The position numbers were made by a program, and so were the translations under genes. DNA of 64,000 nt from Candidatus Latescibacterota bacterium (GTDB lineage: Bacteria; Latescibacterota; UBA2968; UBA8231): assembly GCA_965242865.1 (NCBI GenBank), contig CBDETK010000013.1, positions 3,584,001-3,648,000 on the forward strand, read 5' to 3'. Each line of letters begins with the position of its first letter. Position 1 is the first letter of the stretch. Below are positions 11,346-64,000 of the stretch, in pieces. The notes under the pieces are model-generated. The model made no database searches. It worked only from the letters and a program-made list of their open reading frames with translations, and was not told where the DNA came from.

Positions 11346-11360
11346 CTGGGTCGTCCTTTT

Positions 11361-43526: not shown

Positions 43527-43530
43527 AGTC

Positions 43531-44355: not shown

Positions 44356-44360
44356 AGTCG

Positions 44361-45083
44361 ATGCTGGCCGGGTTGAGCACCTTGGAACTTGCACGCCTTC
44401 GGATGTCCGTGGGTTACGGGACACACAAGAAGGGGCGCCCGTACTCTCCCATAGAGGTGGGATCACTTTTCCGCAAAGCTCGCGACTCAGGTGCATCTCT
44501 CAGGGACTGTGCAACCGAGGCCCGCATCGACGGAACAGGCGTCGGTCGTTTTTTACGAATTCTCGACCTACCGCACGATCTTCGACATCTAGTTGATTGG
44601 GGATCTGGCAAGGACGCTATCGGCTTTTCGTCCGCTATTGAGTTGGTACGGCTTCAGGATCTTGACGATCAGCGTATCGTCGCTAGTTCGATCCTCGCAG
44701 ATGGCCTCAATGGAAAAGAGGTCCGACAGGTCGTACAACTTAGAATGCGTTCGGAGCGTCCTATTTGCACATGCCTAAAGGAAATCTTAGGTATGCGTCC
44801 AGTAATCGAAAGACGCTACGTCTTCATCGGTTCGGTTGTTGATCAGAATGTCGAGGACGCTCTCATAGAACTCACGCAGACGGAGAGAGATTCGATTCTT
44901 GAGTCGGGTATCAAACTTCTCAACATCCGAGGAGCGTCTGGTCGGCTCGGAAAGCGATTCTTCACACTAGTCGGAAACGAGGGCTTTGATGCGTCAATGA
45001 AGAGCATTGGCAAGGAGAGCATTGAGGCGCGGCTTCGAACCCACATCTCGGAGACTGTTGAGAATGCCCGACCCCATTGTTGA
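44361..45083 (+). CDS. Hypothetical protein (possible HTH, ParB C-terminal-like)
   Basis: RBS GAGGAG. SPIEVG...CATEARIDGTGVGRFLRILDLP helix-turn-helix-like segment. Confidence 0.6.
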   Translation: MLAGLSTLELARLRMSVGYGTHKKGRPYSPIEVGSLFRKARDSGASLRDCATEARIDGTGVGRFLRILDLPHDLRHLVDWGSGKDAIGFSSAIELVRLQDLDDQRIVASSILADGLNGKEVRQVVQLRMRSERPICTCLKEILGMRPVIERRYVFIGSVVDQNVEDALIELTQTERDSILESGIKLLNIRGASGRLGKRFFTLVGNEGFDASMKSIGKESIEARLRTHISETVENARPHC

Positions 45084-46095
45084 CGTTCTTGAGAGTGGTG
45101 CCGTCTGCCTCGGGTCAAAAGTAGTGTGTGATGGTTTCGCCGAAGGATACCCTTTCCGCGTCCAGACACATATCCACGATGACCACATGGGCGAGTTCGA
45201 CAAGAGCAAGGGCTTTCAGGATTTTCTGATGAGTCCAGAAACGTATGCACTTCTGGTAGAGGAACGCAATGCAGACCTTGAGTTCCGTGACAATATTCAC
45301 CGAGTAAATCGAGGCGACGAGCGTGTGCTCGACGACGGCTCGAAGCTATCCCTTCTTCCCTCCAACCACATGCTCGGCTCATGTCAAGTCGCACTGGAAT
45401 TACCCGACGGCCTCCGAGTCGGCTATTCAAGTGACTTCGGCTGGCCCCTCAATGAGGTTATTCAAGTCGACGAGCTCGTTGTGGACAGCACCTATGGGAG
45501 TCCCAGAAGCGTACGCCGCTACACCCAAGCGGAAGCGGAGGAGTGTCTGTTAAACCTCGTATGCGAGCGATTGCGACATGGTTCTGTGCATGTCAAAGCT
45601 CACAGAGGAACTATCGAGCGCGTGTTGCATGTACTCGGGGTCAACGTAGGGGTTCCGATTTTGGCCAGCGAACGACTCATTGGGGAAGTGAAGGTCTATC
45701 AGAATCACGGATCCGCTATCGGGGACCTATACGCACTCGACTCGGACGCAGGTCAATCTGCCATGAGGGAACGAGCCTATATTCGACTGTATTCAAAGGG
45801 AGATGGTTTAGGCAACGAACCAATCGGCGAAACGAGCGTCACATGCAGCGCGTACATGGCCAATGCCGATGATCCGCTGGTGACATATTCTGATCGGGCT
45901 TATAGGGTGGCGTTATCTAATCATGCGGACTTCAATGAAACGCTTGAGTACGTTAAGGCGACGAGGGCCAAGAAAATTGTCACGGATAACACACGAAACC
46001 ACGGAGTGGATTTGGCCACCGCCATCAATGAGCGTCTCCCGGGCGTACAGGCTCATCCATCAACGAATAACCCCGGACATAATCCATATCGTTGA
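45064..46095 (+). CDS. Metallo-beta-lactamase-fold (beta-CASP-like) nuclease
   Basis: THIHDDH, NHMLGS, YSSDF, VDSTYG, SNHADF. Confidence 0.8.
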   Translation: MPDPIVDVLESGAVCLGSKVVCDGFAEGYPFRVQTHIHDDHMGEFDKSKGFQDFLMSPETYALLVEERNADLEFRDNIHRVNRGDERVLDDGSKLSLLPSNHMLGSCQVALELPDGLRVGYSSDFGWPLNEVIQVDELVVDSTYGSPRSVRRYTQAEAEECLLNLVCERLRHGSVHVKAHRGTIERVLHVLGVNVGVPILASERLIGEVKVYQNHGSAIGDLYALDSDAGQSAMRERAYIRLYSKGDGLGNEPIGETSVTCSAYMANADDPLVTYSDRAYRVALSNHADFNETLEYVKATRAKKIVTDNTRNHGVDLATAINERLPGVQAHPSTNNPGHNPYR

Positions 46096-46177: not shown

Positions 46178-49126
46178 CTAGTCCGCATCCGCCGGTCCTA
46201 CGGCGGCCTCATGGTGCTCTCTGAGCAGTTCGTCAAGGGCCTTGGAGGTATCCAAGTAATTGGACCATTCGTACGGCGTGATGCCAAAGCGCAGATCCCC
46301 TACCAATGGGTTCGCGCCCCGCGCCAAGAGCAGGCGAGCCATCGCTAGCTGATCGGCCATGACGGTTTTGTGCAGCGGCGTACTGCCGCGATCGTACCGG
46401 CTAAACCCACCGGCCAACCCGTTAATATCCGCGCCGCGATCCAACAAAAACTCCGCCGCTTCCAACGCGCCACTATAAGCCGCAAAATTGAGTGCTTCCA
46501 CCATAATCTGATCGGCGGTGAGCACGGTGTCCGGGTCCGGGTGGTAGAGGTGTCCGGTTCCTTCTTTCAACTTGTCCTCTGGGTCGAAGAACTCGGCCAT
46601 CAGGTCAATGCGGTTGACGCCCGCGGCAAAGCGCAAATCCACGGTCGCTCCCTCGGCTACCAACATGTGCGCCAAATCTAGGTCCCTCTCCCTAAGCGCG
46701 TTCCATAACATTCGGCCCCGGTTGCGGTTCACATCCACGCCGTTGGACACTAGGAGCTGGATCATTTCGGGCTTGCTCTCGGCCCATTCGAGCTGATCGC
46801 TTTCTACGAACAGATCCAGCACGGCGACCGAGTCGTACGTGGCGGCGTTGGGGTCGGCTCCTGCTGCGAGTAACGCCGCGGCGAGTTCAACCGCGTTTGC
46901 CGGCAACGGCACTCGCTGTGGCTCGCCGGCTAGGTGGTGCAAGAGCGTGGCCCCGCGAAAGTGCGGGTATTCGTAATACTCGTCGAAATAGCCGCGGGCT
47001 GTCGTTAGCTTGGGGTGTTCTGCCAGCAACTTTTGCAGGGCCTCGGCGTCGCCGGCATCAATGGCTGCTACCGCCTCGTAATAGGCGTTGTAGTTGGCAT
47101 CGCCGCGGTCTCGGCCTTGGGGCGGCAGTCTTTCTCCCTCGCGGGGAATGGCCAAGGCGACCAATTCGGGCGGACGCCTTCGGTTGCCCAGCGGCACGAC
47201 CACGAACTGACGACCGCCAGCCGTGTAGCTCATCGGCGCACCGTAGGCGTTGCTAGGCAATTCGACGCGGCCAATCTGTTCGCCGGACGCCAAATCGTAT
47301 CCCCGCAGTGACGCATCGCGATCGACGAAGTAATCCTCGCCCGCGTCGGCTAGGCCGTGGGGGTCTTCGGAAGTGGCCAACAGAAGGTTCGGCGTGGCCA
47401 AGACGAAGGTGCGGTTGGCCCAGCCCATATACGGCAGGTCGAGGTCCTTGAGAGCCGGATGATCGACCGGACCTTTGCCCACCGTCGTCCGCCAGATATG
47501 CTCGCCGCTGTTGAGGTCAATCGCCGTGATGCTGCCGTAGGGCGGCTTGACCAGCGGCAGACCCCGAGGGCCAGCGACATACTCGTCAACGCGAGCAGAA
47601 AACGCCGAGTGTGCTTCTGGGTTCTCTACCGGGCGCAACTCCACGGTGGTGATGGCCTTATGCGACGGCACGTACAGGACGCCGGTGCGCGGATCGGCCG
47701 CACCGCCCGCCCAGTCCGCACCACCCCTTTGACCGGGGACTGACAAGACGCCCTTCTCGGTCGGCGGCGTGTAGAGCGGACCGTAGTCATACTCAGCGAG
47801 AATGGCCTTAGCCTCCTCCCGCAACTCCGGCGTGAAGTCAATCAGATCGTCCTCGCTGATGCCTTGATGTTCAAAGGCCGCCGGTTTGGTCGGAAAGGGC
47901 TGCGTCGGCGCGGTCTGTTCGCTTGGCACCTGCGACTGCGGCACCGGCTTTTCGACAATCGGCCAAATCGGTTCGCCGGTGACGCGGTCAAAGACGAAGC
48001 AGAAAGCCTGTTTAGTCAGTTGGACGACGACCTTGCGCGCTTGACCATCGACGACCACGTCCAACAGAAGGGGCGCAGCCGGCGGGTCGTAATCCCACAG
48101 GCCGTGGTGAACCAACTGATAGTGCCACACCCGCTCGCCGGTCGCGGCCTTGAGACAGACCACCGACTCGCTGAATAGGTTGTCGCCGGGGCGCTCGCCG
48201 CCGTAGTAGTCGTGGCTGGCCGTGCTCACCGGCAGGTAGAAGTAGCCCAATTCCTCGTCGGCGGTCATCGTCGCCCATACATTGGCCGCACCGTATTTCT
48301 TCCACGCCTCGTTTTCCCACGTTTCGTTGCCGTATTCGCCCTCTAACGGAATCGTGTGAAACTCCCACACCTTCGCGCCGGTCCGCACGTCAAACGCTTG
48401 CACATCGCCGGGAGGCGTGTACTCGGCCGGCGGCCGACCACGCACATCTAAGATCGCCGAGCCAACAGCCACCACATCGCGACACACCACGGGCGGTGCC
48501 GTAACTCCGTAGCCTCTGCGCTCTCTTTCGCCCAGCGGCCGACGCAGCAAGGCACCCAAATCGACGCGCCCGCCCTCGCCAAAATTCGGATCTGGGACGC
48601 CGGTCTTGGCGTCGATGGAATACAGATGGGCGGTCGAAGTGGCCAGAAACACCCGCTCAACCTCGCCATCGGTCCAATAGCTCACCCCGCGCGAATTGCC
48701 CAAGAAAAAGGAACCAGCCTTCCAAGCCTCTGGGTCGAAAGCCCATAGCTCCTCGCCACTTTGGCCGTCAATGGCCGAGAGGATGTTGAAGGGCGAGCCA
48801 TAGTAGAGCACGCCGTTCACGGCCAGCGGCGTGGCGCGGTGATTGTCGAAACGGAGGCGGGAACGACCGCGCCGCCGACCACCCCGGCCCCGATCCCGGC
48901 TTCGGCTAGCATTGGCCGCCTCATAGATCTGCTGATCGCGGGGGCGATAACGCCAGATTACGCGCAACTGATCGAAGTTGTCGCGATTGATCTGATCGGC
49001 CGGAGTGTAGCGGGTGCCGCCTCGGTCAGCAGCGTAGTACGGCCAATCAACCTCACCGGCAAACGCCGCGAGTGCGAACGACAGCGACAACAAGATCGAC
49101 GAGGTCCTACAGGCGCGTTTATTCAT
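46178..49126 (-). CDS. PQQ-dependent (glucose/quinate-type) dehydrogenase fused to ankyrin repeats
   Basis: RYTPADQIN, HHGLWDYD, PPYGSITAIDL; C-terminal GADPNA, GADIN, TPLHK, GANP. Confidence 0.85.
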   Translation of the reverse strand: MNKRACRTSSILLSLSFALAAFAGEVDWPYYAADRGGTRYTPADQINRDNFDQLRVIWRYRPRDQQIYEAANASRSRDRGRGGRRRGRSRLRFDNHRATPLAVNGVLYYGSPFNILSAIDGQSGEELWAFDPEAWKAGSFFLGNSRGVSYWTDGEVERVFLATSTAHLYSIDAKTGVPDPNFGEGGRVDLGALLRRPLGERERRGYGVTAPPVVCRDVVAVGSAILDVRGRPPAEYTPPGDVQAFDVRTGAKVWEFHTIPLEGEYGNETWENEAWKKYGAANVWATMTADEELGYFYLPVSTASHDYYGGERPGDNLFSESVVCLKAATGERVWHYQLVHHGLWDYDPPAAPLLLDVVVDGQARKVVVQLTKQAFCFVFDRVTGEPIWPIVEKPVPQSQVPSEQTAPTQPFPTKPAAFEHQGISEDDLIDFTPELREEAKAILAEYDYGPLYTPPTEKGVLSVPGQRGGADWAGGAADPRTGVLYVPSHKAITTVELRPVENPEAHSAFSARVDEYVAGPRGLPLVKPPYGSITAIDLNSGEHIWRTTVGKGPVDHPALKDLDLPYMGWANRTFVLATPNLLLATSEDPHGLADAGEDYFVDRDASLRGYDLASGEQIGRVELPSNAYGAPMSYTAGGRQFVVVPLGNRRRPPELVALAIPREGERLPPQGRDRGDANYNAYYEAVAAIDAGDAEALQKLLAEHPKLTTARGYFDEYYEYPHFRGATLLHHLAGEPQRVPLPANAVELAAALLAAGADPNAATYDSVAVLDLFVESDQLEWAESKPEMIQLLVSNGVDVNRNRGRMLWNALRERDLDLAHMLVAEGATVDLRFAAGVNRIDLMAEFFDPEDKLKEGTGHLYHPDPDTVLTADQIMVEALNFAAYSGALEAAEFLLDRGADINGLAGGFSRYDRGSTPLHKTVMADQLAMARLLLARGANPLVGDLRFGITPYEWSNYLDTSKALDELLREHHEAAVGPADAD

Positions 49127-49274
49127 CGGATTTTCCTTTTCCGTGCTGGGTGCCGCTTCAAGGCTTCGCGCAGTTACCGTAGGGCGTGAGGCGTCTCGCC
49201 CCAGCGCACGGTGCCGATCAAGGAGCCGCGCTCCGACGGTCAAGTAGCGGCATCCTAGCGGGTGCCCGCCTTCT

Positions 49275-49905
49275 CTACTGCGGCCTTCATGGTGCGCTCT
49301 AAGCAACTCGTCGAGGGCCTTAGAGGTATCTCAACTGGGCCATCTCTAGCTGATTGGCCATGAAGGTTTTGTGCAGGGGTTTAGTAACTAATGGTGCTAG
49401 TATGTTGACCGTGGTCAAAGTAGTTCCTACGCTGAGGGTATCTCACCTTTCAGCCAAGGAGCGTCCTGATGACCACGGCCGAGTTTATAATAGCCCTGTT
49501 TTACCGAATCGACAATCAGATGCTTGCCGTGCCCAAACACCCGCAAGCGTCCTTATATCCGAGTGAGGTAGTCACTTTAGGGGTGTTGTATGCGCTCAAA
49601 GGCGGGGGTAAACGGGCATTTTACCACGGGCTGGTGCGGGACTGGCAGGCTTGGTTCCCGCGCCTGCCGTCGCGCACCCGCTTGTTCCGCCTCTTCGCCG
49701 CTCATGCCGATTGGACCGACCGCTTCCGAGCGGAGCCGACGACATTGGGAGTGGTCGACAGCTATGGCATTGAGTTGCGCCATCCGGTGCGTCAAGGCCG
49801 GGCGCAGCACGCCATTGGGAAGAAAGGGCTATCCAATCACCGTTGGATCAAAACACTAGCACCATTAGTTAGTACAGTGGTCGAAGCGGTGGAACCCAGT
49901 AGCAA
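49275..49905 (-). pseudogene. Relic 3' end of a paralog of the PQQ-ankyrin gene, interrupted by an IS
   Basis: With the IS removed it reads FATGFHRFDHCTKPLHKTFMANQLEMA, versus LAGGFSRYDRGSTPLHKTVMADQLAMA in the intact gene. Confidence 0.7.
49387..49869 (+). mobile_element. Internally deleted IS (IS982/IS5-like DDE) with 15-bp TIRs and 5-bp TSD
   Basis: TIRs ACTAATGGTGCTAGT / ACTAGCACCATTAGT. TAGTA at 49382-86 and 49870-74. Transposase N-terminus starts at 49469. Confidence 0.85.
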
Positions 49906-52287: not shown

Positions 52288-52382
52288 TGTGTTTCTCCTC
52301 TTACCTTATTGTCCACCACTGGGAAACCCGTACGAGCCGCCCAGATCAAGACCCTTGTCTCCGTGTAGGTACCTTCCCCGTT

Positions 52383-54206
52383 CTATTTATATCTATCGGC
52401 CTGCATTTTGAACATTGAAGCGTACTTCCCATCCGCCGCCATGAGTTCCGCGTGACTGCCGTCTTCGGCAATACTCCCTTTGTCCAGAACGATAATGCGA
52501 TCGGCCATTTTGACGGTGGAAAGCCGGTGGGATATGAGCAATGTTATCTTGCCCTGCGTCAGTCCTTTGAACCGAAGATACATAGAATACTCTGCCTCGG
52601 CATCTAAGGCAGATGTAGGTTCATCGAGAATGAGTAAACCCGCATCGCTTCTGACGAAGGCTCTCGCCATCGCAACTTTCTGCCATTCTCCTTCAGATAG
52701 GTCAACGCCGCCAGCAAACTGTCTGCCTAATAGGGTGGAGTAGCCGTTAGCTAGCTTGGCAATAAGAGGGGTAGCCATACCCTTCTCGGCAGCTTCCTTT
52801 ATTAAGGCCAGATCGTCCACATTTTCTACTTTTCCGATTCCTATATTCTCGCGTACCGTCAGACTGAAACGCGAGAAGTCTTGAAAAATAGCTGAAATAT
52901 TGTTCCTCCAAGAATCGACTTCGTATTGTCTCAAATCAACTCCATTGATAAGGATACATCCGCTCGTCGGATCGTAGAAGCGACACAACAATTTGACAAT
53001 AGTGCTCTTTCCGGCTCCGTTGTCGCCTATCAAGGCGACAGTCTCGCCGGCGTTTATGGTGAAAGATACCCCTCCTAAAATTTCAGTCGCGCTTTCGGGA
53101 TAAGAGAAGTGGACATTCCTAAATTCAATAGTGGCCAGAGGTTTTTGGTGCTCGTGTGCTTCCAGTTCAGCCTTGGTCAATACAGGTTTGAGATTCAAAA
53201 ATTTCATAAAATCTCTATACTGAAAAGCCACCTCGGATAATTGGCCGCTCATCAAGGTGAACATCCAAAGAGTTTCCTGAACGGTTGTAACTGCTGAAAA
53301 ATAAAGCGCGATATCACCCGGTGTTATATCTCCTCTGGTGACGAGGTAGGTCACATAGACATACATACTAGCTAGCCCAATTCCACTCAACAAGGCAAAT
53401 TTTGACGTTAAGTGAGCGTGATCTATTTTTACAACCTTTACTGTTTTTAGGATTTTGTCGAACCCCGTGCTATATCGGTTTATGAAATACTTTCCGATAT
53501 TTAATGTCTTTATTTCTTTGATGGTCTTGGGATCGACCATTATCTGGAAGTAATAGTCGAGCTTACGAGATTCCGGCACATTGCTCCACATGACATCGTA
53601 CGATTTTTTATAATGGCGAAGCTGGACAATCAGGTGAGGGATAGAAACAATCACTAGTACCAAAGGTATAACCCAGTCTATTTTGAATAAGAGAAACAAA
53701 ATAAAAATCAGTGTGACGAAATTGCGAATTGAGGCTGAGATGAGCCAGAGCATAGTTTCAGGTAGAAACGTATGACGTTGCAGATATTGAAGGCGGTCGT
53801 AGAATTTAGGGGTTTCAAAGTAAAAAAGTCCGGGTAAAGAGGCTGAAGTCTCCATAATCATTTGATCGACTTTTCTTTGCAAACGATCGCACAGAGTTGT
53901 TCTAATCGCTTCACTTGCCGGGTTTATAATGAAATAGGCTACTTGAGAAAAAATAAAAATACCTCCCCAAAAAATGTGGCGATACGTAGCACCATCTTCC
54001 TGCGCTTGGTTGGTATCTATAATCGAGTACGAGATTTGATCGACGACGTACTTGACGACTAAAGCCGATAGCCCCGGTAGGATGCTTGCTAAAGTAAGCA
54101 AAAGAATAAACGCGATTGTCAGAAAGGCATCAGCTTTCCATGCTAAGTAAATAATACTACCACTAGCTCTTACCAGTTGTTTCGTTTGACTGATTAGCCG
54201 GTTCAT
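52383..54206 (-). CDS. ABC exporter (lasso cluster)
   Basis: GDNGAGKST, LSEGEWQK, LDEPTSALD. Confidence 0.9.
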   Translation of the reverse strand: MNRLISQTKQLVRASGSIIYLAWKADAFLTIAFILLLTLASILPGLSALVVKYVVDQISYSIIDTNQAQEDGATYRHIFWGGIFIFSQVAYFIINPASEAIRTTLCDRLQRKVDQMIMETSASLPGLFYFETPKFYDRLQYLQRHTFLPETMLWLISASIRNFVTLIFILFLLFKIDWVIPLVLVIVSIPHLIVQLRHYKKSYDVMWSNVPESRKLDYYFQIMVDPKTIKEIKTLNIGKYFINRYSTGFDKILKTVKVVKIDHAHLTSKFALLSGIGLASMYVYVTYLVTRGDITPGDIALYFSAVTTVQETLWMFTLMSGQLSEVAFQYRDFMKFLNLKPVLTKAELEAHEHQKPLATIEFRNVHFSYPESATEILGGVSFTINAGETVALIGDNGAGKSTIVKLLCRFYDPTSGCILINGVDLRQYEVDSWRNNISAIFQDFSRFSLTVRENIGIGKVENVDDLALIKEAAEKGMATPLIAKLANGYSTLLGRQFAGGVDLSEGEWQKVAMARAFVRSDAGLLILDEPTSALDAEAEYSMYLRFKGLTQGKITLLISHRLSTVKMADRIIVLDKGSIAEDGSHAELMAADGKYASMFKMQADRYK

Positions 54207-56044
54207 CTTTTATATTGCTTCGCTTGCATATTATACAATTCTGAGTAAACTCCTCGGAGATTGATCAGGGCACTATGGTTGCCTTCTTCTACGATACGGC
54301 CCCCTTCCAAGACTATGATTCTATCCACTACATGGGCTGTGGATAGCCGGTGGGATATGATCAGCGTGACCTTGTTCTTCGTTAAATCGCGAAAGTGGAG
54401 ATACGTTTCGTATTCGCTTTGCACATCTAGTGCTGCCGTGGGTTCATCCAGAATCAAAATCCGTGCATCTCTAAAAAAAGCACGGGCGATAGCCAGTTTT
54501 TGCCATTGGCCAATGGACAATTCAGTGCCTCCCTCAAACTGTTTTCCGAGGAGGGTGGCAAATTTATTTGGAAGTTTTTTAATAAAATCAGCTCCTGCTT
54601 GGTCTGCGGCCTCTTTTATCTTCTTCTTTTTTATAAGGCTTAGATTCCCCAACCCTATGTTTTCTTCGACCGTCAATTGATATCGGTTATAGTCTTGAAA
54701 AACAATTCCTATATTCTTTCGCAGTTCATCGAGGTCAAAGTGGCTGATTGGAATCCCATTGATCAGAATCTGTCCGCTGTGCGGATCGTACAAACGGACC
54801 AAGAGTTTGACAATAGTGGTCTTGCCAGCACCGTTTCTTCCCACTAGGGAAACTGATTCGTTGAAACTGATCGAAAAGGATACCTGATTTAATATCAGAC
54901 GGTCTGTTCTAGGGTATCTAAAACTCACCTCCTTAAAGTCAACGCGCTCGATAAAATCTGGGAAGGATCTCATTTTTTGATTGGAAATTATTTTAATAGC
55001 AGGTTTGGCTTGCAGAAGTGCAAAAAGATGAGAGAGCAACCTACCTCTTTGGAAAAGCATAGCAACGCCGAACATGCACTCGTTTGAATACATCCACAAC
55101 TGTATCGCTGCCGTTAGATAAGCGACTAAAGATCCGACAGTTAGCAATCCTTCCGTGGCTTGATGGACTAGATGGCTATAGACTGCATATAGGCCCACGC
55201 TACCAAATACGGTACACAAGGACAGCCAGAGAAACTCTCTGAAACGGACATTCCACAGAGTCGCCGTTATCTTCTTGAAAGTCTCATCGTACCGCAATAA
55301 AAAGAAACGGTACAGTCCCAGTAATTTTACATCCTTAGCGACTTCATACGAAAGCATCTGATTGCGGTAATAATCGAGCTTCCTCGCTTCAGGAGCCTGA
55401 TGTTGTATAGCAATGCCGGCCCTATTGGTGAAGACGTAATTCACTAAAGCATACGGTATTATTGTTAAAAGAAAAAAACCAGCAAAAATAAAATCGAGGG
55501 TGCTTAAAAACATGGCAATAAATACTATTTGCAATACATATTTACATGTATCAAAACCAAATATAACCACATCCGCAACGTTGGGCTGAATCCTTTGAAT
55601 TTGCCGTAATTGGTCGTGAAATTTCGGGTTTTCAAAATGCACCAGATCGGGCAACCCATCAACCGCATCCATCGTCAAGGTCGCGATATAACCTTTCATT
55701 TTATCCGCTAAAATACTTTGAAGGGCTAACGCTATAGGGGAAGTAATCGCGGTTAAGACAATGATGCACACCAATGCTATAAGATATAATAAAATGGAGT
55801 CGATGTCTCTATTTTCCATCTTGGATATTTTGATAGCATCATCGATCACAAATTTCATCAAATAAAGTTTCAAGGCCGGTAATATACTTTGTATGAGGGT
55901 CAGAGTGGCCATGCCAGACAATAAAGACAGTGGTGCCACCTGCCATATCATTACCGCAGTTTTACCTATCGCCGTACTAGCACTTTTTAACTCTTTGATA
56001 GAAGGCCACCAAGATTCGAGTTCTATTTTTTTATTTTTGTCCAT
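54203..56044 (-). CDS. ABC exporter (lasso cluster)
   Basis: GRNGAGKTT, LSIGQWQK. ATG overlaps the methyltransferase stop (TAATG). Confidence 0.9.
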   Translation of the reverse strand: MDKNKKIELESWWPSIKELKSASTAIGKTAVMIWQVAPLSLLSGMATLTLIQSILPALKLYLMKFVIDDAIKISKMENRDIDSILLYLIALVCIIVLTAITSPIALALQSILADKMKGYIATLTMDAVDGLPDLVHFENPKFHDQLRQIQRIQPNVADVVIFGFDTCKYVLQIVFIAMFLSTLDFIFAGFFLLTIIPYALVNYVFTNRAGIAIQHQAPEARKLDYYRNQMLSYEVAKDVKLLGLYRFFLLRYDETFKKITATLWNVRFREFLWLSLCTVFGSVGLYAVYSHLVHQATEGLLTVGSLVAYLTAAIQLWMYSNECMFGVAMLFQRGRLLSHLFALLQAKPAIKIISNQKMRSFPDFIERVDFKEVSFRYPRTDRLILNQVSFSISFNESVSLVGRNGAGKTTIVKLLVRLYDPHSGQILINGIPISHFDLDELRKNIGIVFQDYNRYQLTVEENIGLGNLSLIKKKKIKEAADQAGADFIKKLPNKFATLLGKQFEGGTELSIGQWQKLAIARAFFRDARILILDEPTAALDVQSEYETYLHFRDLTKNKVTLIISHRLSTAHVVDRIIVLEGGRIVEEGNHSALINLRGVYSELYNMQAKQYKR

Positions 56045-57003
56045 TACCTTGGAATCCATTGCCAAAGGGTCGAGTGGTTGAACTTAGTTATCTGCTTAGT
56101 CCCCAATTCAAATCCTTTGTAGAGAACTTCGACATCCCACTTCCAAATACAACCAGATGCTCCCGGACTAGCAATTAACCGGACGTCAACTCTGTCGTTT
56201 TCGTTGATGGGTAATGGCTTATAAATGGGTAAAAATATATTGTCCCAAGATGCCGTCTTTGAAGGAGGTGCATTAGTAATATATATGTCGTCAAATAGAC
56301 ACGCTCTAAACCATCCGCAAAGCCCTTGAAGTGTACCTTCTCTTTTTATTTTAAATGAAAATTTTGGACTTGCAAATCCAGATTTCTTTTTAGTATGGAA
56401 ATTGATCTGATGCACTGTTTGAGGTTCACTTAAGAAGTAAGACGGTTTTGCTCTAGTGCTATACACTTCATTCAGAGCCATTTCTCTTACACAAGAAAAA
56501 TCTATTCCGTACACATCTATACTCCATATATCTACTTCGCCATATAGTTGGTCATCTTCGACAGGTACGAGTATCATTTGTAAGCTAGTTGGTACTATCT
56601 TGCCGTTCTTCTTTAGAAATCTGTCACGGGCATCTGATATTGTCTCCACCACATTTTGGCCGAGCCCAAATTTTGAAATTAATTCAGAGATTATGACATC
56701 TGCCTTTTGTGGAATTTCGACATTTTGAGATTCGTCATTAATAAAAGTGATCTGTCTTGTGAAATTATTGCATTTAGCAATCTTTTCCGCCACTTTTACC
56801 ATTGCTGTCCTTTCAATCGCGTAAACTCGCTTTGCGCCAGCTTGGCACGCGAAGAAGGCCAATAATCCACTGCCCGTCCCAATATCGACAACAACGTCTC
56901 CTGGATTAACGCTACGCATTATTGCTTCTCTGTATAGCTGGTTGCGTAATGTATCTCCGACTAATAGTCGATGAAACGAGACACTGCTGAAATCTTCTGA
57001 CAT
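56044..57003 (-). CDS. PRMT-like SAM-dependent methyltransferase
   Basis: DTLRNQLYREAI, VVDIGTGSGLL, DVIISE, ARDRFLK, GLCGWF, TASW. Confidence 0.8.
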   Translation of the reverse strand: MSEDFSSVSFHRLLVGDTLRNQLYREAIMRSVNPGDVVVDIGTGSGLLAFFACQAGAKRVYAIERTAMVKVAEKIAKCNNFTRQITFINDESQNVEIPQKADVIISELISKFGLGQNVVETISDARDRFLKKNGKIVPTSLQMILVPVEDDQLYGEVDIWSIDVYGIDFSCVREMALNEVYSTRAKPSYFLSEPQTVHQINFHTKKKSGFASPKFSFKIKREGTLQGLCGWFRACLFDDIYITNAPPSKTASWDNIFLPIYKPLPINENDRVDVRLIASPGASGCIWKWDVEVLYKGFELGTKQITKFNHSTLWQWIPR

Positions 57004-57176
57004 TTTGTACCCTCGTTAATCTTAATCTCTTAAAAATAACAAATCTGCCTCAAATCAGGCTATGCTTCTACCTCGATAGGAGAGTTTTGGATAATATGCT
57101 CTTTTCCCGCGAAAACGGGAATCCAGCCGGTATCGTTTAGACGCAAAGGACAACCATCAGAGTTTTCAGACAGCTT

Positions 57177-57288
57177 TGCTCTGTTGAAAAGGCTTATTTA
57201 TTAGCTTGGTTCGCTCCATTATTCTATAATAACATCGTAGGAGCAAGCTATACAAGAAGCCTCCTTAACTCTGCTTTTCAACAGAGCA
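57177..57288. mobile_element. MITE with 15-bp TIRs and 9-bp TSD
   Basis: TGCTCTGTTGAAAAG / CTTTTCAACAGAGCA, flanked on both sides by AGACAGCTT. Confidence 0.8.
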
Positions 57289-57297
57289 AGACAGCTT

Positions 57298-57464
57298 CTA
57301 AGAAGCGTTCTTAAATAGGTATTCGGGGTCTCCGGGGTCTCAATCGGCTCAGGCTATTTAGGGCCGCGGCCATCTTCGCCCTATGAAAAACGCTGGACGC
57401 CAAGGCCGCTCGACAGCCTCGCCAAGCACCAAGCGTCCAACAGGGATTTTAAAAAGGCTTCTTA
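57298..57464. mobile_element. Second MITE-like element
   Basis: Imperfect IRs CTAAGAAGCGTTCTTAAA / TTTAAAAAGGCTTCTTAG with a GC-rich interior. Confidence 0.55.
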
Positions 57465-58517
57465 GTTTTCTATTTTTAAAACTTCCAATTTTCTAGTTCC
57501 GCTCATAGCGGCCGATTTAACGCCAGCATAAATCTCACCTTGGCTACCTTCTACTAAGCGGTATATTTCTCCATATTCTCTGTCTTTCTCCAGTTCGATC
57601 CAAACCTCTCTACATTTCCCATTCTCTCTCATCAACAGGAGTTTTACTCCACCTTTTCTCTGGAAATATGGAAGAGATATCAACATATCGCTGTCCCTTT
57701 GTAAAATCGATTGAGTAAAGCTTTTTCCAGCTTTAAGGTACTCGTCATCTATCTTACCATAAGTTACAACTCTATCTTCTCGAGTAAACAAGTGTATTGT
57801 ACCTGTAGCATCCCGGATAATGCGGCTTCCATCTTTCATAATTCCGACACACCTGCCCTCAGACTCTGTAGGCAAGCGGGCAACTTCGATTTCTTTTTTT
57901 TCTTCCAAAGTATAGATGGTCCCTTCTCTTCCCAACCATAAAATCTTACTATTTTGCCACCAGATGCTGTAAGGAGGCTTTGTACAGCCCCATACCTCAG
58001 CAACGCATTCTGATTCATTTGTACTGACATCAACTCGGTAGACTTGGTCATGTGGATATGCTATAGCGTAGAAGATAGGCTCTCTTGGCACCTTCGCCAG
58101 AGATCTAATCCCTTGTCTTTCTGCTACAAATCCCAATCTTCGGGGTTTCCACTCAGGGGATGAGCAGCTAAAAATGTACCCACCTTTATACTCATAACTA
58201 GGATCTTGGGTGATATTGGGCGTGGGACCATGGTGGGTAGCTCCGTATAAAATGCCATCTTCTCGCAGCAGAGACATATACACTTTAGAGTGAAATCTGG
58301 GTTCTGAAGCCAGATCTAGATCCGATGCGAGCATGACTCTCTTACTAATGTGGGATAGCGTATTGATTGCATACATCTGACAAGCCCGTTGTTTAAAACC
58401 CCACGTCGACAATGGAACAAAAAGAGTCTCATCAATGCATTCCATGTCCCAGATAACGGCTAACTGATTTTCTTTATCCACATACGAAGCGATTATATTT
58501 GCCTTCCAACGTTCCAT
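57462..58517 (-). CDS. Hypothetical protein, probable beta-propeller
   Basis: Beta-rich segments (GILYGATH, GIRSLA, GEIYAG). In the operon. Confidence 0.6.
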   Translation of the reverse strand: MERWKANIIASYVDKENQLAVIWDMECIDETLFVPLSTWGFKQRACQMYAINTLSHISKRVMLASDLDLASEPRFHSKVYMSLLREDGILYGATHHGPTPNITQDPSYEYKGGYIFSCSSPEWKPRRLGFVAERQGIRSLAKVPREPIFYAIAYPHDQVYRVDVSTNESECVAEVWGCTKPPYSIWWQNSKILWLGREGTIYTLEEKKEIEVARLPTESEGRCVGIMKDGSRIIRDATGTIHLFTREDRVVTYGKIDDEYLKAGKSFTQSILQRDSDMLISLPYFQRKGGVKLLLMRENGKCREVWIELEKDREYGEIYRLVEGSQGEIYAGVKSAAMSGTRKLEVLKIEN

Positions 58518-58526
58518 TTTTTCCTC

Positions 58527-59795
58527 TTAAGATGGGTGTAGGTCACGTGGGGACTTTATTTTTACTTTTTCTTTTTTCTCTTTAGCACTCGCTACTTTAG
58601 CGGCGATTATCTGACCGATCTCTCCATTTCTTATAACTACCCCGTTTGCCGTTAATAGATGCACTCCATTCAACCATCTGTTCGGATTGCACAGTCGGCC
58701 TGATATGTCTTGATGAGGTATTCTTATCTCTCTTTTCCCAGGTACAATCTGACCCTCGGAATTTACGTCCAATACTAATATATCATCTTTGCTGTCGCTC
58801 TCAGAAGTTCCAATTACTCTTATCAGGGCATCCAAGCTATCGCCTTGGAAAAGAGCATTCATCTTTCTAAAAAAATAGCCCATCGGGACCTGTAACTGAT
58901 GTTCGAATATTCTTTCTGCTATAATTTCTATACCTTCTTCGCTACTCACTACCTGATCTAACAGGATGTTGAGATTAGCGAAACGCCCCAGTTCCAAGTC
59001 GCTACCTATGATAGAAGCCGTCAAGCTCTGCATGAACACGGCTGCTTCATTCGCCAAGAGGAGGAAAGAATCGATAAGGTCTGGAACCCGGAGAGGTAAG
59101 CCCAATAAATCTGTTGTTATGGCGCGGTCATTCGCGCTTTTCCAAAGACCCATGGGTTGGGGGCCATTATCTTTATACGGCCTAATCGTCATTAGTGGTC
59201 TCGAGCCATCAGTCGAAAGAGACTGCGCCATTCGCTGAATAAAAGGATAAAGTCTATCAATAACTGGATCGGCTAAATCACTATATGGATCGTCGAAACT
59301 TTTAAATAGGTTCAAGCGCGGTAAAGAGAAAAGCTTGTATTCTGTGGCTAGTATATCTTTAACCTCGTCTACTGCTTTTTCGTTGACTAAGATTTCTACC
59401 GAACGGGAGCGCCCAAAGGAATCCTCGCCATAAATCCTTCGTCCCAACCCCATAGTCGGCCATATGGTAAAATCAACTCCTCGTTTCAGCAACATGCTGC
59501 CAAACTGGCGTAGCAGCGCGAGTTGATATCTCTCCAGATTGGCCAGTTCCGCACGAAAAAACAGACACTCTGGATCTATCGGATTCAAAGTTTCCTCCGG
59601 GGGCCGCATAGTGTACTGGAACCGGTATCTCAGCATATGGGGCAACACACGCTGTTGCAGCAGCACAGATAGTAGCGGCCTATTTTCGCTCTGGAGTATA
59701 TCGGGCGGTTTGAGGGAGTCTATATAAGCCAGATCGAATTTGGGTTTAGCCAATTCAACCATTATCTCCCATACATCTTCTTTCAATTCTTCCAT
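58527..59795 (-). CDS. Divergent nucleotidyltransferase-family protein
   Basis: IYGEDSFGRSRSVEILV resembles the R..D.D.LV motif. Lasso-cluster context. Confidence 0.5.
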   Translation of the reverse strand: MEELKEDVWEIMVELAKPKFDLAYIDSLKPPDILQSENRPLLSVLLQQRVLPHMLRYRFQYTMRPPEETLNPIDPECLFFRAELANLERYQLALLRQFGSMLLKRGVDFTIWPTMGLGRRIYGEDSFGRSRSVEILVNEKAVDEVKDILATEYKLFSLPRLNLFKSFDDPYSDLADPVIDRLYPFIQRMAQSLSTDGSRPLMTIRPYKDNGPQPMGLWKSANDRAITTDLLGLPLRVPDLIDSFLLLANEAAVFMQSLTASIIGSDLELGRFANLNILLDQVVSSEEGIEIIAERIFEHQLQVPMGYFFRKMNALFQGDSLDALIRVIGTSESDSKDDILVLDVNSEGQIVPGKREIRIPHQDISGRLCNPNRWLNGVHLLTANGVVIRNGEIGQIIAAKVASAKEKKEKVKIKSPRDLHPS

Positions 59796-59810
59796 TTCCA
59801 GTCACTTCTA

Positions 59811-60464
59811 TCAATTGTGGTTCTGTTTTTTGTCTTGAATTAGTTTCGCTCCGACCTCCAAAAGTGCTTGGGGGCCATTTCGTCGCAATCCTTTAATGTA
59901 CATCTCAGGCTTATTAGCTCGATATTGGACTTCTTCAGCGAAGAAATAGGCAATGTCGGTGTTGGCCTTGATCCACCTTTCTTTTTGAACTAGATTTTGG
60001 ATAGCTCTTCGGATAGCGAGTGGGTCAGTCCAGTTTGCTTTGAAAACCACCTTACCCTCTTTGTCAATTATCCAACTCATATTGGGTCGGGACCCGTAAA
60101 GCTTGTGAGCTTTTTCATCAAACCTATCGACCCATATATCGCGCTTTACACCATATAATCTCTTGAATGCCCATGCGTGATCTATTTTCTGTTCAATTGA
60201 GCGGTGTTCAGGCCAGTATTCTCCTGGATGTGCCTCGGATGTATATACAAAAACTAGTTCAAAACCAAATTCTGAAAACTCTACATTTAAATATTCCATC
60301 GCTGGAATGACATCGACACAGTAGGGACAAGTAATACTTCCAAATTCGAGGACCACATGTTGTCGGCCGATATAGTCCGATAAGTTGGCTTCTCCCTTTC
60401 CCAGATTAATAGCGCAGAAATCTGGAGCTTGCTCAAGCAGTTTTATCCTGTCTGTGAAACTCAT
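59811..60464 (-). CDS. Deiodinase-like/AhpC-TSA thioredoxin-fold protein
   Basis: VLEFGSITCPYC, VYTSEAHP, YGSRPN. Confidence 0.8.
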   Translation of the reverse strand: MSFTDRIKLLEQAPDFCAINLGKGEANLSDYIGRQHVVLEFGSITCPYCVDVIPAMEYLNVEFSEFGFELVFVYTSEAHPGEYWPEHRSIEQKIDHAWAFKRLYGVKRDIWVDRFDEKAHKLYGSRPNMSWIIDKEGKVVFKANWTDPLAIRRAIQNLVQKERWIKANTDIAYFFAEEVQYRANKPEMYIKGLRRNGPQALLEVGAKLIQDKKQNHN

Positions 60465-60511
60465 AACAGCGATCTTAAGTTTAACTGTAGGTCTACTAGT
60501 CTTACCGAAAA

Positions 60512-60552
60512 GTGCAATGAGCCTTAATTTTCATCATTAAGGCTCATTGCAC
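60512..60552. terminator. Hairpin after the lasso precursor genes
   Basis: GTGCAATGAGCCTTAAT / ATTAAGGCTCATTGCAC perfect 17-bp stem. Confidence 0.75.
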
Positions 60553-60610
60553 AGACTCAGGAGGGGTGTCTCAAACCTTAACCATCAGGTTATTTGGTTT
60601 GGATTGAGGG

Positions 60611-60754
60611 TTAGCAATTGACTTTCCGAGTACAATTGGCATCATAGGCCTGGCTACCGCCAGCAGTGACTAGCCCCACGGCATTGCCGAACCTAACCAC
60701 GACGGGAATGACATATTCCTTTTTCGCGGTCTTTGCCTGTTCTTCCTTACTCAT
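60611..60754 (-). CDS. Lasso peptide precursor A2 (47 aa; not in ORF track)
   Basis: RBS AAGGAGG then MSKEEQAKTAKKEYVIPVVVRFGNAVGLVT-AGGSQAYDANCTRKVNC. Confidence 0.85.
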   Translation of the reverse strand: MSKEEQAKTAKKEYVIPVVVRFGNAVGLVTAGGSQAYDANCTRKVNC

Positions 60755-60792
60755 GATTTATCACCTCCTTCCTTCTAGGTTTCATCTTGTGT

Positions 60793-60954
60793 CTAACCGC
60801 AGTGTTGACGGGTCCCTCCTGTTTCGAACTGGCAGTTGCCATTACCAGCGGCGAGCGTGGCAACATTGCCGAAATTGACTAGTACAGGGGACTGATAGTT
60901 CTTCTTTTTTGGAGGAACCTGTCCCTGCTCGTGAGGTTGGTGCTTCTTGTGCAT
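60793..60954 (-). CDS. Lasso peptide precursor A1 (53 aa)
   Basis: RBS AAGGAG; YQSPVLVNFG leader motif; core GNGNCQFETGGTRQHCG. Confidence 0.88.
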   Translation of the reverse strand: MHKKHQPHEQGQVPPKKKNYQSPVLVNFGNVATLAAGNGNCQFETGGTRQHCG

Positions 60955-61012
60955 TTTCAGTCTCCTTTCACTCCAGTGGCTAAAGTTGTATTGACACCGA
61001 CTCCTGAGTCGA

Positions 61013-62974
61013 TTAGATGCCATATTTTCTATGCATTCTATCGAGCCATAGCTCGATAGAAAGAGCATTTAGAAGATTCCCCAGATGTGTCCAATTACCT
61101 TGCATCCAATGAGATAGACTTCGTGTAAATTTATCGTGATCTAAATAGCCTCTCCTAACCGTTTCAAATCCTCTCGTCTGGCCCTTCTCTATGAGACGGG
61201 GCAATTCTTGCTGTAAGCCTCTAAGAGCTGGACGACCGAAATCAGGGCCTCTTCGACGCGTCCTCACTTCTTCAGGTAGTATATCTTTTAGTGCCTCCCG
61301 CATAATTACTTTTCTATGACGTCTACCTGAAGGCACTTCAATATAGGTCTTCAAGCCCATAGGTACACCTAGCATATATTCAAGAAGACGCTTATCATAG
61401 TATGGCATACGTATTTCGATAGATTGAGGCGACGCGACATATTCATCCATCCAACAGTATCCTGTGTCTTCATATAACGACCGATACTCAATCCGCATAG
61501 ACTGAACTGGGAAATGACGATCTGGAAGTAATTCTCGGAGTCTTTTACGGGCACCCATTTTTTTGGCAAAATCGGGATTCACCCAGTCTACCATAACAGG
61601 GCCTCCAAAGGAATCGAAATAATGCCAGTATTCAGGCTTGACGTGTAAAATAGGACTCAAGATAGTTTGCCAAAACTCGGGAACGAGGGGTTTAATAGCA
61701 AAATTTATTAAAGCATGTAGGTACGTCTGGTTCCTTGCATATGACCACATTTTAAGCTCACGCGTTAGCTCTTTGAACCTTCCCTTACGTAATAGATCGG
61801 CTAGATATAAGGGATTACCTTGTAGAATGGCATCTCCACCATCCCCCCTAAGCCAAACTCGTGCGCCAAATCTATATACAGCCGAAACAGTACGTAATAC
61901 CTGATCATAAGCTGAGAATCCACCACTCGGCTCATCTGTAAGGGGAGCATGTTGAAGCTGATTCTGAAAAAGGAAAAAGTCGTCCGACGGAATTTCAATG
62001 GTATTTTTGATTTGGTATTTATCTACTACTTGCCGTTGAAAATACCGCTCATCTGACTCAGGAAAGTCATCAAAGACCATTGAGCAGGTTGTAAAGCCGT
62101 TAGAAGGAATCTCGCCTTGATTATATATCTCTTGTGCCATAGACACAATCGAGGACGAGTCCAAACCACCGCTGAGGTCTGAGACCACGGGTTTCATACA
62201 ACGCAACCGGCACCTAACCGCCTCGCGAAAAAGTTCCCGTAGCCGTTCTTGATAGTCTTCGGTTTTCTGATAGCGAACCTCAGAAACTTCACGCGGGTCC
62301 CAATAAGCAATAGGGTCACTTACCCCATGCCGATCTACTTTTATATAATGAGCCGGTGGTAATCTCAATATATCCTCAAATACAGTAGTTGGAGTAGATA
62401 GCGGTCCAACTGCACAATATAACAGATAGTCAAGGATATAGTTATCATTTATTTTCATCGGAAAGGATGGTTCCTGAAAAATCTGTCTAATCGAAGACCC
62501 CCATATCAAAGTATTCTTGAACTTAGTATAATAAAACGGACGGATCCCCATAAAATCACGTGCACAGAGCAGTGTTTCCGTTTTCGCATCCCAGATGGAA
62601 AATGCGAAATCCCCAACTATTTTTTTTAAGCATTCAATATTCCATTTTTCGTAAGACAGCAAAATTAACTCTGCATCTGTCGGGGAAAATTGAGGGGTTT
62701 TATCTTTTTTTAATAGAGAGATCAGCTCATCCCGATTATCTACGCGCCCATCGCAGACTATCCAGATATTGGAACCCCTAATCGACAAGGGCTGGATCTC
62801 CCTGTAGGATTCTTCGGTCGTATGAAATTGGCAATGAGCCATACCTATATGGTATAGTACAGTCTGATTTACCCGTTCAGCACCCCGATGAGAAATTTGC
62901 ATAATCATATTTTTCAGCATATTCTCATCAATCGGTTTTTTGTCTAGGTTTAATATCCCCGCAATACCAGCCAT
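61013..62974 (-). CDS. Lasso cyclase (asparagine synthetase-like, C protein)
   Basis: N-terminus MAGIAG lacks the AsnB Cys; DLSGGLDSS, GDGGD. Adjacent to B1/B2 and the precursors. Confidence 0.9.
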   Translation of the reverse strand: MAGIAGILNLDKKPIDENMLKNMIMQISHRGAERVNQTVLYHIGMAHCQFHTTEESYREIQPLSIRGSNIWIVCDGRVDNRDELISLLKKDKTPQFSPTDAELILLSYEKWNIECLKKIVGDFAFSIWDAKTETLLCARDFMGIRPFYYTKFKNTLIWGSSIRQIFQEPSFPMKINDNYILDYLLYCAVGPLSTPTTVFEDILRLPPAHYIKVDRHGVSDPIAYWDPREVSEVRYQKTEDYQERLRELFREAVRCRLRCMKPVVSDLSGGLDSSSIVSMAQEIYNQGEIPSNGFTTCSMVFDDFPESDERYFQRQVVDKYQIKNTIEIPSDDFFLFQNQLQHAPLTDEPSGGFSAYDQVLRTVSAVYRFGARVWLRGDGGDAILQGNPLYLADLLRKGRFKELTRELKMWSYARNQTYLHALINFAIKPLVPEFWQTILSPILHVKPEYWHYFDSFGGPVMVDWVNPDFAKKMGARKRLRELLPDRHFPVQSMRIEYRSLYEDTGYCWMDEYVASPQSIEIRMPYYDKRLLEYMLGVPMGLKTYIEVPSGRRHRKVIMREALKDILPEEVRTRRRGPDFGRPALRGLQQELPRLIEKGQTRGFETVRRGYLDHDKFTRSLSHWMQGNWTHLGNLLNALSIELWLDRMHRKYGI

Positions 62975-63022
62975 CTTATTTTCCTTAATCGGTCAATCGG
63001 TCGTTTTATCCGTAATCGTGGA

Positions 63023-63463
63023 TCAGCAAACAGATATTACCGAATACCTATCTCTAAGATCCACAGAATCATTTACTACTTTGCCATAGCACTCAACCCA
63101 AGCATGAAAAACTAGCGGAGGGAACTTCGTATATCCGATACACAACTCAGCCGGAAACCTATACTTTCTAAGCAAGGAACAGATAACCAAAGACCTTTCA
63201 AGGCACTTTACGCGCCTTACATAAATTCGTGCGGCCTGCTTACCAATTTCTGAGATAAGGTCTACCAAATCAACTTCAGAAACCATTTGGTTTTCGTTCC
63301 TTGGCTTCGTAATAACGTGCTGCTTCACTAGGCTCTGGGCACATTTTCCAAAGCCGAACAGTCGCAGATATATATCGGTTTTTACATAGAGCGTGTACGC
63401 CTGTAAAAAAATGTAGAAATACTTTAGCCGCTTTTCAGGGGCCATTAAATTGGTGTCAGTCAT
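63023..63463 (-). CDS. Lasso leader peptidase B2
   Basis: KCLERSL...FHAWVE transglutaminase-like motifs. Confidence 0.92.
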   Translation of the reverse strand: MTDTNLMAPEKRLKYFYIFLQAYTLYVKTDIYLRLFGFGKCAQSLVKQHVITKPRNENQMVSEVDLVDLISEIGKQAARIYVRRVKCLERSLVICSLLRKYRFPAELCIGYTKFPPLVFHAWVECYGKVVNDSVDLRDRYSVISVC

Positions 63464-63746
63464 TTCGTATATCTAACACTCCGTTTTTATTTAACTCAGT
63501 TATCAGAGCTAATATATCTCCCCGTAACTGATCTTCGCCGACATCGTATTCCTCCATTAAATCTCTCAATATCTGCTCTATGGCTATACCGTCTTTTTTA
63601 TGATTCGCCAGTTCCCAGAAACTTTTACCGACAGCTACCAACCCATAGAACTCGCCGCTTTCAAAATTCAGGATCACCACATTTTCGCCATCTATTGTCG
63701 ATTCAACATGGTCTGGAATCGAAATCTTAGTTGAGGGATCTATCAT
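63456..63746 (-). CDS. Lasso RRE protein B1 (PqqD family)
   Basis: VILNFESGEFYGL, FWEL, EYDV...DILALITEL..GVL. Confidence 0.92.
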   Translation of the reverse strand: MIDPSTKISIPDHVESTIDGENVVILNFESGEFYGLVAVGKSFWELANHKKDGIAIEQILRDLMEEYDVGEDQLRGDILALITELNKNGVLDIRND

Positions 63747-64000
63747 TATTTCTTTTTTTAAAGTAACGTTAAGTAAGGTTAGGTATAGTGTGAAGGCTCC
63801 TGAGCATAAATGGCTTGGGTTCTCACCCCGAACTTTGCTGTTATACCGCTATAGGAGATAGAGATATCGATCGTATGTTTTGGACTTGGGACTTGGATAT
63901 ATTTAGTATAGTATTAGATATTTGTCAAGCGAAAAATGGACTTGTCTCAAGTATTACCGGCAGGCCAACCCCGACGGGAGCGGCAATGTCCGTCTTGACG

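Follow-up and report, generated by a model that had tools for sequence, protein, structure and literature searches.

A lasso peptide gene cluster with two precursors

The stretch of DNA analysed here (the window, 64,000 nucleotides) carries a lasso peptide gene cluster at its far end, on the minus strand. Three genes encode the core machinery: B1, a PqqD-type leader-binding protein (RRE) of 96 residues (63456..63746; Pfam PqqD, 51.1 bits against a cut-off of 23.4); B2, a transglutaminase-like leader peptidase of 146 residues (63023..63463; lasso_biosyn_B2, 78.2 bits against a cut-off of 33, and Pfam Transglut_core3); and C, an asparagine-synthetase-like lasso cyclase of 653 residues (61013..62974; Asn_synthase, 146 bits, and GATase_7). 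B1 scores 46.6 bits on NCBIfam lasso_PqqD_Bac, under the cut-off of 80, and the cyclase reaches 404.5 bits on its nearest NCBIfam model, lass_lactam_cya, below the cut-off of 525. The SGGLDSSS motif of the cyclase is invariant among 11 relatives. An RRE, a transglutaminase-like peptidase and a cyclase are encoded together here, the combination by which a lasso cluster is recognized. Two precursor genes, A1 and A2, lie directly downstream of B1, B2 and C on the same strand. The far side of the cluster is formed by two ABC exporter subunits, identified by family matches, of 620 residues (54203..56065, minus strand) and 607 residues (52383..54206, minus strand).

The whole cluster lies within a low-GC island (52300..64000) that runs off the window end and has a GC content of 0.429, as compared with 0.584 for bases 1-52300. 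Gene by gene, the nine enzyme and transporter genes range from 0.40 to 0.45 and the two precursors from 0.50 to 0.53. GC content changes sharply where the second ABC gene has its 3' end, near 52300; this edge shows neither an integrase nor a tRNA, the tRNA scan having been empty. Since all 11 cluster genes are low in GC, the cluster, accessory genes included, appears to be one compositional island that was probably acquired horizontally, and jointly.

A preliminary description of this DNA had placed two lasso precursors at 60611-60954, and both minus-strand open reading frames are indeed present next to B1, B2 and C. A1 (60793..60954) encodes 53 residues with the predicted core GNGNCQFETGGTRQHCG, in which G1 and E8 would close the ring and the cysteines are C5 and C16. 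A2 (60611..60754) encodes 47 residues with the predicted core AGGSQAYDANCTRKVNC, in which the ring would run from A1 to D8 (Ala1 to Asp8) and the cysteines are C11 and C17. The alignment on which that description was built was also correct in its particulars, namely Y(-17), P(-14), G(-8), 17-residue cores, an aromatic residue at position 7, an acidic residue at position 8, T12-R13, and Cys at 5/16 and 11/17. Both precursors combine the leader motif with a small first core residue and an Asp/Glu at positions 7-9 (G1 and E8 in A1, Ala1 and D8 in A2). Between the leader Tyr and the C-terminus their alignment needs no gap, and the two peptides are 34% identical; the leaders have Y, P, V, F-G-N and L in common, the cores T-R.

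Strong Shine-Dalgarno sites precede the ATG of A1 and A2 alike by 7-8 nt (AAAGGAGACTGAAA-ATG for A1, where AAAGGAG precedes the ATG; GGAAGGAGGTGATAAATC-ATG for A2). Taken mechanically, the reading frame of A1 continues upstream as far as 61068, within the 3'-terminal part of the cyclase gene; the 53-residue form is the predicted protein in the protein collection, where A2 is also present, and P0002, a relative 83% identical to A1, begins at the same Met. The default cut-off for open reading frames was 60 residues, and A2, with 47, falls under it. NF033528 (lasso_cyano) matches A1 at 21.5 bits, over the leader only and below its cut-off of 33, and A2 has no NCBIfam match, NF033528 included. The pattern [YFW]xxPx[LVIMAT]xxxG followed by a short tail occurs four times in the 64-kb window: A1 and A2 are the only cluster-associated matches, and the remaining two sit in unrelated high-GC frames.

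Directly 3' of A2, on the same strand, lies a 17-bp stem-loop with a GC-containing stem, followed by a T-run (60512..60552). The 118-nt region around this hairpin reaches -44.3 kcal/mol (z -7.45), and none of 200 shuffles was as stable. Its identification as a miRNA, suggested by a sub-threshold model in an Rfam search of 52-64 kb, was rejected as a chance match. Further downstream, a 458-nt non-coding gap with no Rfam match (57004-57461) separates two of the accessory genes, a 351-residue orphan and a methyltransferase. Because the strong hairpin and this gap intervene, co-expression of the accessory genes with the precursors is an assumption, and the accessory genes may be split into separate transcription units.

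The precursors belong to a small peptide family

A word-indexed search with an A1/A2 profile found only A1, A2 and P0002. When an HMM of these three sequences was run exhaustively against 1.84 billion representatives, 10 peptides scored E<=1e-3, of which eight were new, and one further peptide was recovered by cluster look-up, for a family of 12 sequences. That such a model retrieves ten peptides at this threshold shows that the precursor pair is more than a chance resemblance. Moreover, three of the precursors and the cyclases of the clade nearest to the window cyclase (43-49% identity) come from contigs of equal size (2150480, 38069 and 94429), and this agreement suggests that precursors of this family accompany cyclases of that clade. 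The family signature consists of an aromatic residue at position 7 and Asp/Glu at position 8, each in 11 of the 12 sequences, and Arg/Lys at position 13 in 10. The preceding T12 is poorly kept (P0002, P0124 and P0126 have G12); it is the basic residue 13 that is conserved. The core sequences of A1, A2 and P0002 were not found in print, within a coverage that lay outside subscription journals and supplements.

In the register adopted here, the core begins 17 residues after the leader Tyr and the rings of A1 and A2 count 8 residues. This spacing, first read from the two precursors, is backed by the 10 family relatives and by distant systems. We screened every stop-to-stop frame of the 80 distant lasso loci listed (cyclases 25-38% identical to that of the window) for [YFW]xxPx[LVIMAT]xxxG with a remainder of 12-40 residues and an Asp/Glu at 7-9 counted from the aromatic residue+17. 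The resulting 43 motif rows show the proposed Tyr-to-core spacing to be the general one. At Tyr+15, leader position (-2), T occupies 29 of these rows, I occupies 8, V occupies 2, and 4 rows have another residue, the rows being uncurated and some of them plainly false. The 12 family sequences have V in seven, T in three, I in one and A in one; A1 is alone with Ala(-2), and A2, with Val(-2), belongs to the majority. [quoted passage not shown] Under the family register, the core of P0124 would be EKGNSMYETGGGKNNC, which starts with Glu; a lasso ring opening with this residue would be unusual.

Accessory genes of the cluster

The first accessory gene starts 146 nt downstream of A2 and encodes a thioredoxin-fold (AhpC/TSA, deiodinase-like) protein of 217 residues (59811..60464, minus strand) with AhpC-TSA, Redoxin and T4_deiodinase matches. 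It matches ResA and deiodinase structures, and its CPYC motif aligns on the deiodinase active site; by sequence, it has both the thioredoxin fold and a CxxC active site. No hydrophobic N-terminal signal was evident by eye. Only two relatives were found in the protein collection, both N-terminally truncated and without the CPYC region, and there was no orthologue among the 80 lasso loci listed. The gene position suggests that the protein handles peptide thiols. According to PMC9266682, class I lasso peptides can do without such oxidoreductases, and class III and class IV clusters lack them.

The next two genes encode orphans. The 422-residue protein (58527..59795, minus strand) has no Pfam, NCBIfam or PDB match. 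The 351-residue protein (57462..58517, minus strand) has no family, structure or locus match (WDR55 appears at E 0.12 only) and no match among plasmids. When these two and the thioredoxin-fold protein were compared by jackhmmer with all open reading frames of the 80 listed loci, self matches only were obtained. A degenerate NTP_transf_5 domain was considered for the 422-residue orphan after one pairwise BLASTP comparison at E 0.025 and was set aside, Pfam giving nothing even at E 10; it remains a lead.

The last accessory gene encodes a SAM methyltransferase of 319 residues (56044..57003, minus strand) that matches PRMT_C and PRMT5_C. Over residues 3-280 it aligns with PRMT6, CARM1, PRMT3 and PRMT1 at E about 1e-31, and the family profile reaches about 1e-50; the protein arginine methyltransferase (PRMT) catalytic domain and its beta-barrel are both represented. 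Two motifs of PRMTs, the double-E loop with its pair of catalytic Glu and the THW loop, are altered: E107 is kept, the second Glu is replaced by Gln116, and the His of THW by Ser. Homologues at 27-39% identity occur in 11 of the 80 listed loci (L002, L003, L005, L006, L013, L016, L021, L022, L032, L042 and L069), on the same strand and within about 2.5 kb of the cyclase. In six of the seven homologues that were aligned, the two members of an acidic pair stand one residue closer together. All seven count 377-404 residues, owing to a C-terminal extension that is missing from the window enzyme. A reading of this extension, of about 70 residues, as an RRE/PqqD domain was discarded (hhalign E 0.028 at low probability; Pfam PqqD in 0 of 5 extensions). 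A plasmid search with the methyltransferase returned nine records at 25-35% identity, none of which is annotated as lasso-related under the match. In the literature searched, we found no PRMT fold linked to lasso peptides.

Precursors that end in Cys-Leu and have a single Cys were found at six of the ten methyltransferase loci with a detected precursor and at 2 of 23 others (Fisher p 0.004), a figure that omits the L001 and L049 rows, which are obvious false matches, and one doubtful L054 row, and that treats loci which are not independent; with the doubtful rows kept, the others amount to 3 of 25 (Fisher p 0.007). Cys cannot be the universal target of these enzymes, since the precursors of L006, L013, L021 and L042 are Cys-free. 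The case for Arg13 as the target is weakened by several homologue loci with Arg-free cores and by the lack of a second catalytic Glu in the window enzyme. The candidate targets are Arg13, or the C-terminal Cys or carboxylate.

Many of the distant loci encode a Walker-A kinase-like protein of about 330 residues 3' of the precursor (31 open reading frames in 30 of the 80 listed loci, among them L005, L006, L012 and L013), sometimes accompanied by an NTP_transf_5 protein. The kinase-like protein is absent from the window.

Other features of the window

Several features outside the island were recorded in passing. A DNA phosphorothioation-type defence module (37854-46095, GC reduced to about 0.50-0.55) is made up of an SspA/DndA cysteine desulfurase, a DndC-like PAPS reductase, a GmrSD/SspE-like nuclease, an SNF2 helicase (DpdE/ZorD-like), a ParB_N protein and two unknowns. 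An FG-GAP protein and a PQQ dehydrogenase with C-terminal ankyrin repeats are encoded at 34668-37637 and 46178-49306; the FG-GAP protein has a weak match to a T9SS C-terminal sorting domain (E 5.9e-6, 26.9 bits against a cut-off of 27), a hint of a high-GC host resembling Bacteroidota. An IS110-family transposase frame (27543-28313) has a ZnuA/ABC-3 metal uptake operon on one side and a TonB-dependent receptor on the other. At 9426-13091, a subtilase fused to DUF1611 domains adjoins an ABC exporter with unannotated neighbours, and this region may be another secreted-peptide system.

Cysteine layouts and predicted disulfides

The 12 family sequences differ in their cysteines: three have none, four (three distinct cores) have one and five have two. 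Where a Cys stands alone, it is always the last residue (P0124, P0125 and P0126/P0132, that is, three relatives and four sequences). A lone non-terminal Cys was found in none of the 12. The C5 and C16 pair is present in A1, P0002 and P0127, so that C5 is accompanied by C16 in all three carriers, whereas C11 is paired with a last-residue Cys in A2 and P0128. P0002 keeps both cysteines although 6 of the 15 other core positions differ from A1, and P0129 (GNGNANYEKGGSRNTD) is A1-like and lacks C5 and C16 together. Pairing of C5 with C16 would be expected to leave such a pattern, but these co-occurrence counts are small, and A1 and P0002 are not independent. As far as these sequences go, the C-terminal Cys shows itself to be a family trait able to stand alone, and because it does so in three relatives, C16 and C17 may serve another purpose than pairing.

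A ring-tail disulfide defines class III lasso peptides and a tail-tail disulfide class IV (PMC7689547, PMC9266682), and the preliminary description, which had proposed two products of these two classes, agrees with these sources in its definitions. Across 47 solved lasso structures, the loop counts 3-20 residues and the tail at least 2 (LassoPred paper). From this minimum loop, the residue just above the ring would be acceptor+3 or later. In A1, C5 lies within the ring and C16 in the tail; C16 would be positioned below the ring and within reach of C5, an ordinary class III geometry. A lasso with a predicted C5-C16 (class III-like) disulfide is plausible for A1, because C5 always occurs with C16 and both are absent from A1-like P0129, and we give this reading about an even chance. 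For A1, the proposed class gains from this co-occurrence and double loss, the bond itself being a prediction.

The geometry of A2 is different. Both of its cysteines lie after the ring, and C11 is three residues beyond the acceptor D8, so with the minimum solved loop of 3 it would be at or just above the ring at best. For a bridge wholly below the ring, C11 is too near the ring acceptor, and the class IV label given to A2 is therefore superficial; it is doubtful that A2 is a canonical class IV candidate unless its loop is shorter than in any solved lasso. A C11-C17 bond would instead straddle the ring, the macrolactam strand being enclosed in a 7-residue disulfide loop; in P0128, the corresponding Cys-to-Cys loop would count only 6 residues. 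A2 might thus have a loop of 2 residues, which would be without precedent, or a bridge that straddles the ring; its product might also not be threaded, or its cysteines might have another role. So far, tethered catenane-like topologies have come only from engineered cysteine variants of MccJ25, the engineered [2]catenane having rings of 8 and 10 residues (PMC13352647). Of the earlier proposal of two products in two disulfide classes, what stands is the two precursors, their register and a plausible class III-like A1; the class IV assignment of A2 is doubtful.

Alternative readings

Two alternatives concern the processing of A2. Cleavage one residue later, by a Thr(-2) rule, would yield GGSQAYDANCTRKVNC with a 7-residue G1-D7 ring: Thr30-Ala31-Gly32 would then provide a canonical Thr(-2), the commonest state in the motif rows (29 of 43), and a Gly at position 1. 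However, this cut would depart from the Tyr-to-core distance that is constant in the remaining 11 family sequences and lose the common aromatic-7/acidic-8 register, and the Val(-2) of the adopted register is what 7 of the 12 family sequences have; we consider the later cut improbable. A2 might also be a decayed, unprocessed duplicate of A1, to which it is only 34% identical, and it escapes all NCBIfam models. Yet its leader motif, the acceptor at position 8, the strong ribosome-binding site and the open frame are all intact, and the independent relative P0128 has the same layout of C11, R13 and C-terminal Cys, which makes decay extremely unlikely. The reading we prefer for A2 is that of an intact second precursor, cut at the same distance from the leader Tyr as A1.

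Other alternatives concern the cysteines. These need not be intramolecular partners: the near-C-terminal Cys could be a handle (a free thiol, a metal ligand, or an S- or carboxyl-modified group) that a cytoplasmic CPYC protein, without a signal peptide by eye, would keep reduced and that the methyltransferase possibly modifies. The three relatives (four sequences) with a C-terminal Cys only speak in favour of a handle, as do the single-Cys precursors with Cys-Leu ends at 6 of 10 methyltransferase loci with a precursor, as compared with 2 of 23 loci lacking the enzyme. On the other side, A1, A2, P0002, P0127 and P0128 have exactly two cysteines each, the non-terminal Cys is never alone in the family, and some methyltransferase loci (L006, L013, L021 and L042) have Cys-free precursors; on balance, a handle is possible but rather unlikely. 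A disulfide-linked A1-A2 heterodimer, for example through C16-C17 and C5-C11, had also been suggested. It would make use of two cysteines placed differently in the two peptides and would avoid the topologically awkward intramolecular C11-C17 bridge, and single-Cys relatives could homodimerize by the same chemistry. But A1-like P0002 was found without an A2-like partner in the two peptide searches, a weak argument given that small reading frames often go uncalled, and nothing computed here points to A1-A2 pairing; the suggestion lacks support and a heterodimer is very improbable. The cluster could, lastly, make products outside the four disulfide classes, either a catenane-like A2 with a C11-C17 bond or an A1-A2 pair, with tailoring by the PRMT-fold enzyme, for example at Arg13 or the C-terminal Cys. 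We regard this combination as unlikely. The preferred reading of A1 remains the ring-tail disulfide.

A proposed pathway

We propose the following pathway, by analogy with lasso systems that have been characterized. B1 would bind the YxxPx(L/V) leader of both precursors, and B2 would cut 17 residues past the Tyr, after Ala36 in A1 and after Thr30 in A2. The cyclase would then join the freed Gly1 of A1 to Glu8, or Ala1 of A2 to Asp8, so that a ring of 8 residues encircles the tail; the basic residue conserved at position 13 would lie near the threading point. A1 would most likely end as a 17-residue lasso with a C5-C16 ring-tail disulfide. A2 would be processed too; if C11 and C17 pair, their bridge would span the ring plane or the loop would be shorter than any precedent, and otherwise these cysteines would stay free or be modified. 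The predicted monoisotopic masses for A1 are 1764.706 (linear), 1746.695 (lasso) and 1744.679 Da (lasso with one disulfide), and for A2 1756.762, 1738.752 and 1736.736 Da; the 16-residue alternative of A2 would have 1667.714 Da, or 1665.699 Da with a disulfide, and each methyl would add 14.016 Da. The adjoining CPYC thioredoxin-fold protein probably sets the redox state of the peptide cysteines, the PRMT-fold enzyme probably methylates the peptides, and the two ABC proteins would export the products. This explanation as a whole, an apparently functional and probably horizontally acquired cluster with two divergent precursors and the pathway as proposed here, we judge to be an evenly balanced proposition.

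How bridges form in disulfide-bearing lasso peptides is unsettled. With two Cys layouts in one cluster, it may be asked whether the cyclase or the oxidoreductase dictates the bridge, and A2 asks what follows when a tail Cys sits too near the ring. The cluster is otherwise compact and encodes a CxxC protein of its own. The PRMT-fold methyltransferase family is a recurrent lasso-associated enzyme of which we found no description.

Comparison with known lasso peptide systems

The felipeptins A1 and A2 of Amycolatopsis sp. YIM10 are likewise encoded by two precursors in one cluster, which, as described in PMC7689547, also has split B1 and B2, a cyclase gene, a pair of ABC transporter genes and one additional gene for a redox protein. 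The rings are alike as well (8 residues, G1-E8, in products of 17-18 residues), each felipeptin having one disulfide (PMC7689547). The two felipeptins share one class IV bridge, C13-C17, which lies below the ring, with residue 12 at the ring (PMC7689547); the window cores differ, with Cys at 5/16 and 11/17, and C11 is too near the ring. The redox protein of the felipeptin cluster, FilE, is a predicted flavin oxidoreductase, whereas the window has a thioredoxin-fold CxxC protein, and the felipeptin cluster is described without a methyltransferase, whereas the window cluster has one (PMC7689547). Of the known systems, the felipeptin cluster comes closest to a single cluster whose two precursors give disulfide-bearing products.

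In BI-32169, the ring Cys lies three residues before the acceptor and the tail Cys at the C-terminal end, as in A1. BI-32169 and 9401-LP1 are the class III peptides with one ring-tail disulfide, as predicted for A1; both are actinobacterial, and the 9401-LP1 cluster is described as holding A-D genes only (PMC9266682, PMC13352647). The predicted ring of A1 counts 8 residues, and A1 appears unrelated in sequence to either peptide. By the count of PMC7689547 and PMC9266682, the lasso peptides characterized so far include two of class III and three or four of class IV. The preliminary description had called both classes rare; two-Cys cores are not rare in genomes, since they make up 380 of 4749 predicted lasso peptides (LassoPred paper).

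Class I clusters of the sviceucin type (SviE/SviF) also have a thioredoxin-domain CxxC protein next to a Cys-bearing precursor, SviF being reported as dispensable for disulfide formation (PMC9266682); the window protein is deiodinase/AhpC-like with CPYC. BsfA-type precursors share with those of the window the YxxPxL motif, Tyr-17/Pro-14 and a non-Thr aliphatic residue at (-2), but their clusters are all described as carrying a kinase (PMC10368454), and the window cluster has none. SAM methyltransferases are known from lasso clusters in which C-terminal O-methylation (lassomycin, StspM) or PIMT-type aspartimide formation occurs (PMC9266682, PMC8498205); that of the window differs from the StspM and PIMT types in having a protein arginine methyltransferase fold. 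The features that make the present cluster stand out are the mixed Cys layout, the short-loop problem of A2, and the accessory set of a CPYC protein, a methyltransferase and two orphans.
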